In this document: positions 58,221 to 58,462 of the stretch, piece after piece
Layout of the letters: each line of letters starts with the position of its first letter
Numbering within the stretch: the first letter of the stretch is position 1
Assembly (NCBI GenBank): GCA_964016885.1
Contig: OZ024745.1
Location: 58,528,001 to 58,592,000 of the forward strand
Source: Eledone cirrhosa
Lineage: Eukaryota
Reading direction: 5' to 3'
Length of the DNA: 64,000 bases
Position numbers and translations under genes: made by a program
Notes under the pieces: generated by a model
What the model was told of the DNA's origin: nothing
What the model saw: only the letters and a program-made list of their open reading frames with translations
Database searches by the model: none

Positions 58221-58294
58221 TATTTCATCTGATGAAGGAGCTAGCCGTTTCTGTATGGATCGTCTAGTTTCCTGAAACCTTTGGTAATGAAATA
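58221..58294 (+). ncRNA. Type I hammerhead ribozyme motif with intact core
   Basis: Stem I TATTTCAT/ATGAAATA, CTGATGA at 58229-58235, stem II AGGAGCTAG/CTAGTTTCCT, GAAA at 58274-58277, stem III CC(TTT)GG, GUA cleavage triplet ending 58286. Confidence 0.8.
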
Positions 58295-58383
58295 ATTATA
58301 TTGTGCTTTTTATTAAATAATTAAATAGCTCTGTATTATACATAGAGCACTCTTTCCTTTACTTTTTCTACGTAAATACTTAA

Positions 58384-58462
<79 letters not shown>

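Follow-up and report, generated by a model that had tools for sequence, protein, structure and literature searches.

A type I hammerhead motif upstream of octopus FHIP2A, likely part of the terminal end of a Hydra-clade Penelope-like element

In metazoan Penelope-like elements (PLEs), hammerheads occur mostly as single motifs in truncated copies, with opposite-strand pairs 100-700 bp apart, and they show a long helix II, a palindromic helix III suited to dimers, and many variable subfamilies (PMC4209133). It has been reported that PLE insertions are 5'-truncated, with an inverted partner at the 5' end and a tail at one end only (PMC8557442, PMC4209133), and that the PLE hammerheads assayed so far are weak as monomers or dependent on the element protein (PMC4209133, PMC11167929).

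The Hydra clade of C-terminal EN+ PLEs is defined by its protein, a single ORF with reverse transcriptase (RT) and, at the C terminus, a GIY-YIG domain that lacks the CCHH, RWK, and DKT motifs. The ribozyme table of PMC8557442 holds 25 Hydra families, 19 of which have the 9-nt segment A15.1-U16.1. Nearly all Hydra families target (TA)n, and one that bears an ORF, Hydra-1_Obim, has been published for Octopus bimaculoides (PMC8557442). In the open-licence literature, a cephalopod PLE hammerhead was found just in PMC8557442, besides a count of 235 Rfam Hammerhead_1 matches in the giant squid, and a Hydra stem-loop or tail was not found there.

With regard to copying, the PAc protein of a Poseidon element from the lizard Anolis nicks AT-rich DNA, and reverse transcription starts at two internal points around a stem-loop, the interval between them being the tail (PMC11167929). 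Uncut RNA is the main template and the ribozyme cuts only when the protein is present; RNA-seq ends at the cut site were not found (PMC11167929).

The octopus locus considered here lies in a window of 64,000 nucleotides (64 kb), the whole stretch of DNA that was analyzed. As in metazoan PLEs, the hammerhead at 58.2 kb is a single motif in a truncated copy, an opposite-strand pair is present (at 34.3 kb), and the long helix II, dimer-suited helix III, and variable subfamilies recur. Stem III, however, has 3-4 bp where the metazoan PLE hammerheads of PMC4209133 have none, and stem II has ~14 bp with a closing pair of A-U or C-A instead of the usual G-C. As in PAc, the ribozyme is followed by a stem-loop and by two end points that define a tail, the copies retain an uncut ribozyme, and the targets are AT-rich (PMC11167929). 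The PAc ORF begins within the ribozyme, whereas the ATG inside the octopus core meets a stop after 11 codons, for which reason an ORF starting there was dropped, and Hydra ORFs begin further downstream.

The hammerhead motif and its repeat family

The original prediction described a hammerhead with an intact core, an 8-bp extendable stem I, and a long stem II, all of which can be read directly from the sequence. Its "minimal" stem III is not retained as a description, as the stem comes to 3 bp when A15.1-U16.1 is counted. The features of the locus are as follows.

58190-58215: 5' flank, (TGTA)n/TA tract (direct reading)
58216..58381, + strand: whole repeat unit of ~165 bp, likely a 3'-terminal Penelope-like stub, with its 5' boundary placed to within ~5 nt
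58221..58294, + strand: type I hammerhead motif (sequence reading, descriptor search, and fold), with a predicted cut after 58286
58221-58228 paired with 58287-58294, + strand: stem I, 8 Watson-Crick pairs
58229-58235, + strand: core CUGAUGA (direct reading)
58236-58273, + strand: stem II, ~14 pairs, bulged, with a closing pair A-U, not G-C
58274-58277, + strand: GAAA (direct reading)
58277-58285, + strand: stem III, pairs A-U, C-G, C-G, with a UUU loop
58284-58286, + strand: GUA, predicted cut site 3' of 58286
58328..58353, + strand: conserved hairpin, GCTCT...AGAGC plus ACTCT, which starts 42 nt past the cut and opens the optional tail
58328..58381, + strand: tail of 54 nt, running from the short end (~58327) to the long end (58381)
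58382..58480, no strand assigned: microsatellite flank (CA)n(TA)n(TG)n (direct reading)

The motif at 58221-58294 is real as a type I hammerhead. CUGANGA, GAAA, and NUH stand in core order, and there are three helices with an open-ended stem I, which can lengthen beyond a 1x1 mismatch. A type I descriptor matched twice in the 64-kb window (58221 on the + strand and 34421 on the - strand), compared with a mean of 0.035 in block-wise dinucleotide shuffles, or 0.015 if the 8-bp stem I was required (200 shuffles each). By constrained folding in isolation, the hammerhead fold reaches -17.0 kcal/mol against a minimum of -17.3 (a gap of 0.3), with a predicted active-core share of ~0.13; set against shuffles, the 74-nt fold is unremarkable (z -1.7). 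Rfam, proposed earlier as a check, returned no hammerhead family at E<=1 across the window or at E<=10 at the 58.2-kb and 34.3-kb loci, probably because stem II is long. Two subfamilies retain stems I-III despite differing sequences. Among the variants listed, which are unphased, 58245 A faces 58263 T and a minor 58245 G goes with 58263 C, as would be compatible with compensation, and those in the 58328-58353 hairpin fall within its loop.

Two further candidates were rejected. A 45-nt intron starting at the cut-site GT is too short. The contig of this locus itself ends exactly at 58286 in contig sets X1 and X2, which was considered as a sign of cleavage; these contigs are of unrecorded library type and hold intergenic flank, and the end lies 30 nt past the private base 58256, as a 31-mer graph would yield.

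The 5' boundary of the unit is given by a step in depth, by alignment starts at 58214-58223, and by inversion joints at 58211-58226. At the 3' side, 58381 is the end common to the 58.2-kb unit and the long arm at 34.3 kb. The family has a second 3' end 54 nt before it, at ~58327, where 26 X1 contigs exit into (TA)n, and the corresponding position is also where the short arm at 34.6 kb terminates. The hairpin motif that opens the tail has two matches in the window and none in 100 shuffles, and the tail folds with a z of -2.7. ViennaRNA favours an unbulged 7-bp hairpin in the octopus copies; a drawing with two bulged nucleotides on the 3' side and GTA/TAC as the upper stem is possible as well. 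In the family majority (58360-58381) and in the 34.3-kb arm (34280-34292), the tail is closed by another small hairpin, TTTCC-NNN-GGAAA, which the 58.2-kb copy has lost via a private change at 58373.

Family size was gauged by aligning three contig sets and a RAD-seq read set to 57800-58385 at 80% likeness; of the contig sets, X1 and X2 come from a single sample of organism A and X4 comes from organism B. The numbers of aligned contigs were 1467, 1562, and 886 for X1, X2, and X4, so that the family occurs in organism B too. Depth is unique until ~58180, at 13.5 (X1) and 10.1 (X2); the sequence of organism B did not cover this unique flank. Summed depth, a rough order of magnitude and no copy count, then rises in X1 from 1,561 at 58220-39 to 95,825 at 58280-99 and 131,305 at 58320-39, and at 58320-39 stands at 153,305 in X2 against 10.1 on the unique flank. 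Read only as orders of magnitude, the 3' part exists in thousands of copies, and the relatives close enough to span the whole ribozyme number roughly a hundred or more; the lower 5' depth is likely due to variation of stem II among subfamilies. Within the window, nhmmer recovered just the three known copies; the next best match (E 0.022 at 14441-14496) looked like an AT-rich chance hit on inspection. A metagenome scan with the hairpin motif gave no match. The repeat library of PMC13282606 may already contain the family.

The 58.2-kb copy departs from the majority letter at at least 10 sites of ~165, or ~6%. At that divergence 13 core bases survive intact by chance in 45% of cases, so the intact core is no sign of selection. 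Private differences at 58237, 58243, and 58290 improve pairing, and one at 58245 breaks a pair.

Comparison with Hydra-clade termini

The Hydra comparison consisted of a motif search of the PMC8557442 supplement, which pointed to this clade, followed by by-eye counts from its ribozyme table and consensus sequences. Hydra elements carry a type I hammerhead in sense near the 3' end, with a weak or mismatched 10.1-11.1 position and, in most families, the 9-nt stem III segment A15.1-U16.1, and the 58.2-kb copy agrees in all three respects; its canonical hammerhead lies near the 3' end with a stem III segment within the 9-10 nt expected. The segment reads ACCA-A-TGGT in Hydra-1_oBim, ACCA-C-TGGT in both 34.3-kb arms, and ACCA-T/C-TGGT in two loose-end consensuses. 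That of the 58.2-kb copy, ACC-TTT-GGT, is less palindromic than in the 34.3-kb arms (dimer duplex -5.1 vs -8.2 kcal/mol), and its TTT loop is also found in two Hydra consensus families.

Six Hydra consensus sequences are printed. Three of them show the hairpin clearly and one shows a variant. The carriers of GCTCT...GAGCACT are Hydra-2_Ajap, Hydra-1_Ajap, and Hydra-2_Amil, the variant is in Hydra-1_Crog, and the consensus sequences of Hydra-1_Amil and Hydra-1_Obim stop before the hairpin, the 5' start of the latter being only weakly alike. It thus recurs in three phyla (coral, sea cucumber, and octopus), and its upper stem varies in both strands: GTA/TAC in octopus, GTCC/GGAC in sea cucumber, and ACACTT/AAGTGT in coral. 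The spacing is also similar. In the three Hydra consensus sequences that hold both landmarks, the distance from cut to hairpin is 39-48 nt (42-43 in the octopus copies); from cut to short end, three give 36-47 nt (~41 in octopus), and from hairpin start to long end 50-69 nt (54 in octopus). The string TAGAGCAC occurs three times in the 584,131-character supplement, twice at Hydra termini and once inside a non-Hydra sequence. The hairpin motif was not found in the Naiad/Chlamys sequences of that supplement; the comparison covered Hydra and Naiad/Chlamys only, so that the hairpin is not to be read as Hydra-specific. The Hydra section of PMC8557442 does not mention it.

As for target choice, (TA)n flanks the copies at 58.2 and 34.3 kb and the loose ends at 58327, as expected of Hydra insertions. 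The insertions also have the general PLE shape, namely truncated copies, an inverted pair at 34.3 kb, and a one-sided tail. On the protein side, eight short Hydra ORF motifs gave no convincing match in six frames of the 64-kb window, and the stub (58216-58381) is itself without an ORF.

Hydra-1_Obim shares the stem III, but its flanks differ, its stem II is shorter, and it has no clear hairpin. Because flanks and hairpin differ, the 58.2-kb unit belongs to a different family. It is likely the terminal stub of an octopus Hydra-clade family not listed so far; unlike the described members of the clade, this family has thousands of stubs and is placed by its ends instead of a linked ORF. The earlier assignment to a Penelope-like family is therefore supported and has been narrowed to this clade by the evidence above. 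The suggestion that the family may be non-autonomous, made from the lack of an ORF in the window, does not follow: most PLE insertions are 5'-truncated stubs (PMC4209133, PMC8557442) and the ORF-bearing Hydra-1_Obim is known, so an ORF-less 64-kb window says nothing on autonomy.

Besides the family difference and the negative ORF search, further observations count against reading the unit as a Hydra stub. The octopus tail of 54-57 nt is longer than the 30-40 bp usually quoted, as in PAc, the 34.3-kb arms start ~70 nt further 5' than the 58.2-kb subfamily, and the pairing-improving differences of the 58.2-kb copy do not look like plain decay.

Inverted pairs, fixed ends, and the route of copying

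The original prediction also noted a related copy at 34.3 kb with a common downstream tail. The likeness holds (80% over 111 nt of the 3' part, E 7e-22), but the locus comprises two inverted copies instead of a single one, one of them with a G8-to-A change.

34275..34491, - strand: long arm of the head-to-head pair, a related subfamily with an intact core (34421-34373), the hairpin, and a 57-nt tail, in an FHIP2A intron
34494..34651, + strand: short arm of the pair, with a G8-to-A core and no tail, running into (TA)n

The arms are 97% alike, and the 57-nt tail is on one arm only. All three copies in the window carry the hammerhead in a terminal repeat, with one core broken. The pair 34275-34651 would form a near-perfect hairpin of ~160 bp in the FHIP2A intron (predicted -242 kcal/mol), and from that predicted structure it is likely a substrate for A-to-I editing. 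ATGAAGTA stands in direct orientation at both outer ends of the pair, and a target duplication is possible. TCACTTT opens both arms from one common base (34484-34501) and fits the initiator-like consensus YYANWYY; this is weakly consistent with a transcription start at the pivot of this subfamily. A further palindrome lies at 1-626 (~626 bp, 98-99%, 17-nt spacer); no hammerhead core was seen in it, and it is a fold-back or MITE-like element.

Contig joints repeat the pattern, since all 15 that are listed, out of 23, are inversions. Among them, the long arm ends at 58211-58226 in 14 (median 58217, 12 nt before C3), while short arms start at 58249-58323 and in no case at 58211-58226. A binomial estimate for this clustering, p ~2e-11 for independent and uniform rows, is overstated, as rows may share ancestry or be one locus in two runs, and is inflated by the fact that joints reaching 5' of the homology of the 58.2-kb copy would be reported otherwise. 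Stem I was considered as a fold-back primer of the inversions and rejected, because the starts of the short arms spread over 58249-58323 without any close to 58295.

The fixed 5' end raises the question of what moved. Under one proposal, the 165 nt form a SINE-like derivative that is not autonomous, has a transcription start of its own immediately before the ribozyme, and is mobilized in trans by a Hydra-type protein, instead of arising from full-length element RNA as a by-product. The contrast between long arms (14 of the 15 listed at 58211-58226) and short arms (none of 15) agrees with it, as do loose ends before 58216 in 23 X4 contigs, whose low agreement (0.53) suggests unrelated flanks. 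However, an autonomous RNA with its start at that point would give the same fixed end, provided that RT begins on the 5' hairpin copy. PLE promoters sit in the pseudo-LTR (pLTR) upstream of the ribozyme (PMC2377424, PMC4209133), and the fixed 5' end is therefore best read as an RNA start, whether of the autonomous mRNA or of a separate short transcript. The 34.3-kb subfamily also reaches further 5', and the joints are the 15 listed of 23, in rows that may be one locus in two runs. On balance, we regard a SINE-like unit as rather unlikely.

The inversions bear as well on a second proposal, in which a non-LTR retrozyme replicating via small circular RNA has left the unit as a dispersed monomer. 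Non-LTR retrozymes are short, non-coding, low in GC, and PLE-derived, with a type I hammerhead (PMC7229834; 10.64898/2026.07.22.740005), and the octopus unit is likewise short, of low GC, type I, and without an ORF; in Xenopus, monomers derived from PLE pLTRs are widely dispersed (10.64898/2026.07.22.740005). Retrozymes are nevertheless tandem and head-to-tail, whereas the octopus unit is single, no head-to-tail unit is present within the window, and all 15 joints listed are inversions, none tandem. Two fixed 3' ends and a tail fit PLE priming and not the ends of a permuted circle, and 165 nt is below the 220-400 nt of known monomers (PMC7229834). This origin appears very improbable.

The explanation that we favour, and hold to be quite probable, is that the 165-base fragment is the terminal (pLTR) end of a Hydra-clade PLE. 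It would have been copied, with uncut RNA as template, into a TA/CA microsatellite and would be a passenger beside FHIP2A. This explanation brings together what is directly observed, namely the motif, the repeat boundaries, a high-copy family, inverted pairs, two 3' ends, and microsatellite flanks. By analogy, the octopus anatomy would map one-to-one onto the PAc scheme. The RT/GIY-YIG protein of the element would nick AT-rich DNA, and reverse transcription would be primed at one or other of two positions around the hairpin, with the short end at 58327 or the tailed end at 58381 as the outcome. RT would then read through the uncut ribozyme and usually halt ~12 nt before the core, probably at the RNA 5' end, and two such products, or one fold-back, may yield the head-to-head pairs. 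The ribozyme would serve the processing of the element's own RNA, likely as a dimer or aided by protein, while a lone copy would cut poorly.

More tentatively, the 165-nt unit could be the complete cis-acting module of Hydra retrotransposition, with the RNA 5' end 12 nt before the core, an uncut ribozyme, and a bulged hairpin that sets two priming points, and it may move as an independent ribozyme-bearing SINE. We offer this as a conjecture with somewhat less than even chances.

FHIP2A as neighbour and the meaning of the family

The gene beside the ribozyme had been named as FHIP2, ~730 bp away on the divergent strand. FHIP2A is confirmed there: one exon is 100% identical to the O. bimaculoides protein, and Pfam PF10257 matches later exons.

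57443..57505, - strand: first coding exon of FHIP2A (tblastn of the O. bimaculoides protein), with the ATG at 57505

The distance to 58221 is 716 bp from this ATG, or 728 from a second ATG. Isoforms on the - strand have an alternative first coding exon (42871-42933) and an alternative internal exon (34960-35085). A low-copy repeat of ~100 bp is found at 57775-57880, on the stretch from the FHIP2A start to the ribozyme, and again in intron 1 (54600-54690). FHIP2A introns also hold three RT-bearing retroelement remnants. That at 22362-24458 (-) has a frame of 698 aa with RVT_1 and PHD; that at 48792-50729 (-) has one of 645 aa with RVT_1 and shows an internal duplication, exact over 300 nt (48547/49236); in that at 52230-53378 (+) the frame is broken and the RVT_1 match weak. 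Two adjacent open frames of 231 and 190 aa at 4681-5885 (+), without a Pfam match and likewise in an FHIP2A intron, resemble a broken transposon-derived gene. The window also has a dispersed repeat, and a related unit of 47 bp is arrayed in tandem at 32080-32585.

Reports of divergent transcription exist for invertebrates. It had been predicted that any upstream-antisense transcript from the promoter would self-cleave after 58286, and it may be asked whether the 58.2-kb copy has been co-opted to cut and destabilize such RNA. The placement of the copy on the opposite strand, 716 bp from the ATG, permits this. Its core is unbroken, three of its private changes strengthen pairing, and in isolation the active fold lies only 0.3 kcal/mol above the minimum. 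Against this, an intact core is expected by chance in 45% of cases at ~6% divergence, and among thousands of copies some will land near promoters. Three AATAAA hexamers precede the ribozyme on the + strand (57890, 58002, and 58161). With upstream flank included, the predicted active share falls at some transcript lengths by as much as five orders of magnitude (1e-6 to 0.13 over 33 transcript boundaries), and no same-strand partner ribozyme lies within 23 kb, the core of the nearest + copy being broken. Together with the weakness of PLE monomers, this leaves self-cleavage of an antisense transcript unsupported; a role of the ribozyme in FHIP2A antisense RNA is likewise unsupported, its tie to the gene being position alone. 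Co-option is accordingly hard to credit. The long arm at 34.3 kb is sense to the FHIP2A pre-mRNA and is transcribed after its own complement; since it is predicted to be locked in the hairpin of ~-242 kcal/mol, it should not cut the pre-mRNA.

Cutting of antisense RNA by a promoter-proximal copy would, if it took place, count as a rare ribozyme co-option, but nothing found points there. The single 58.2-kb locus matters little, as there are thousands of such stubs. To the little-studied Hydra clade, the family would contribute an abundant member from octopus that Rfam does not see. Its fixed 5' end and cross-phylum hairpin provide testable coordinates for two questions: what role the hammerhead has when the copied RNA is uncut, and which RNA feature is recognized by RT. 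If the unit is indeed the complete cis-acting module, the thousands of octopus copies would record the RNA start and both RT start sites.
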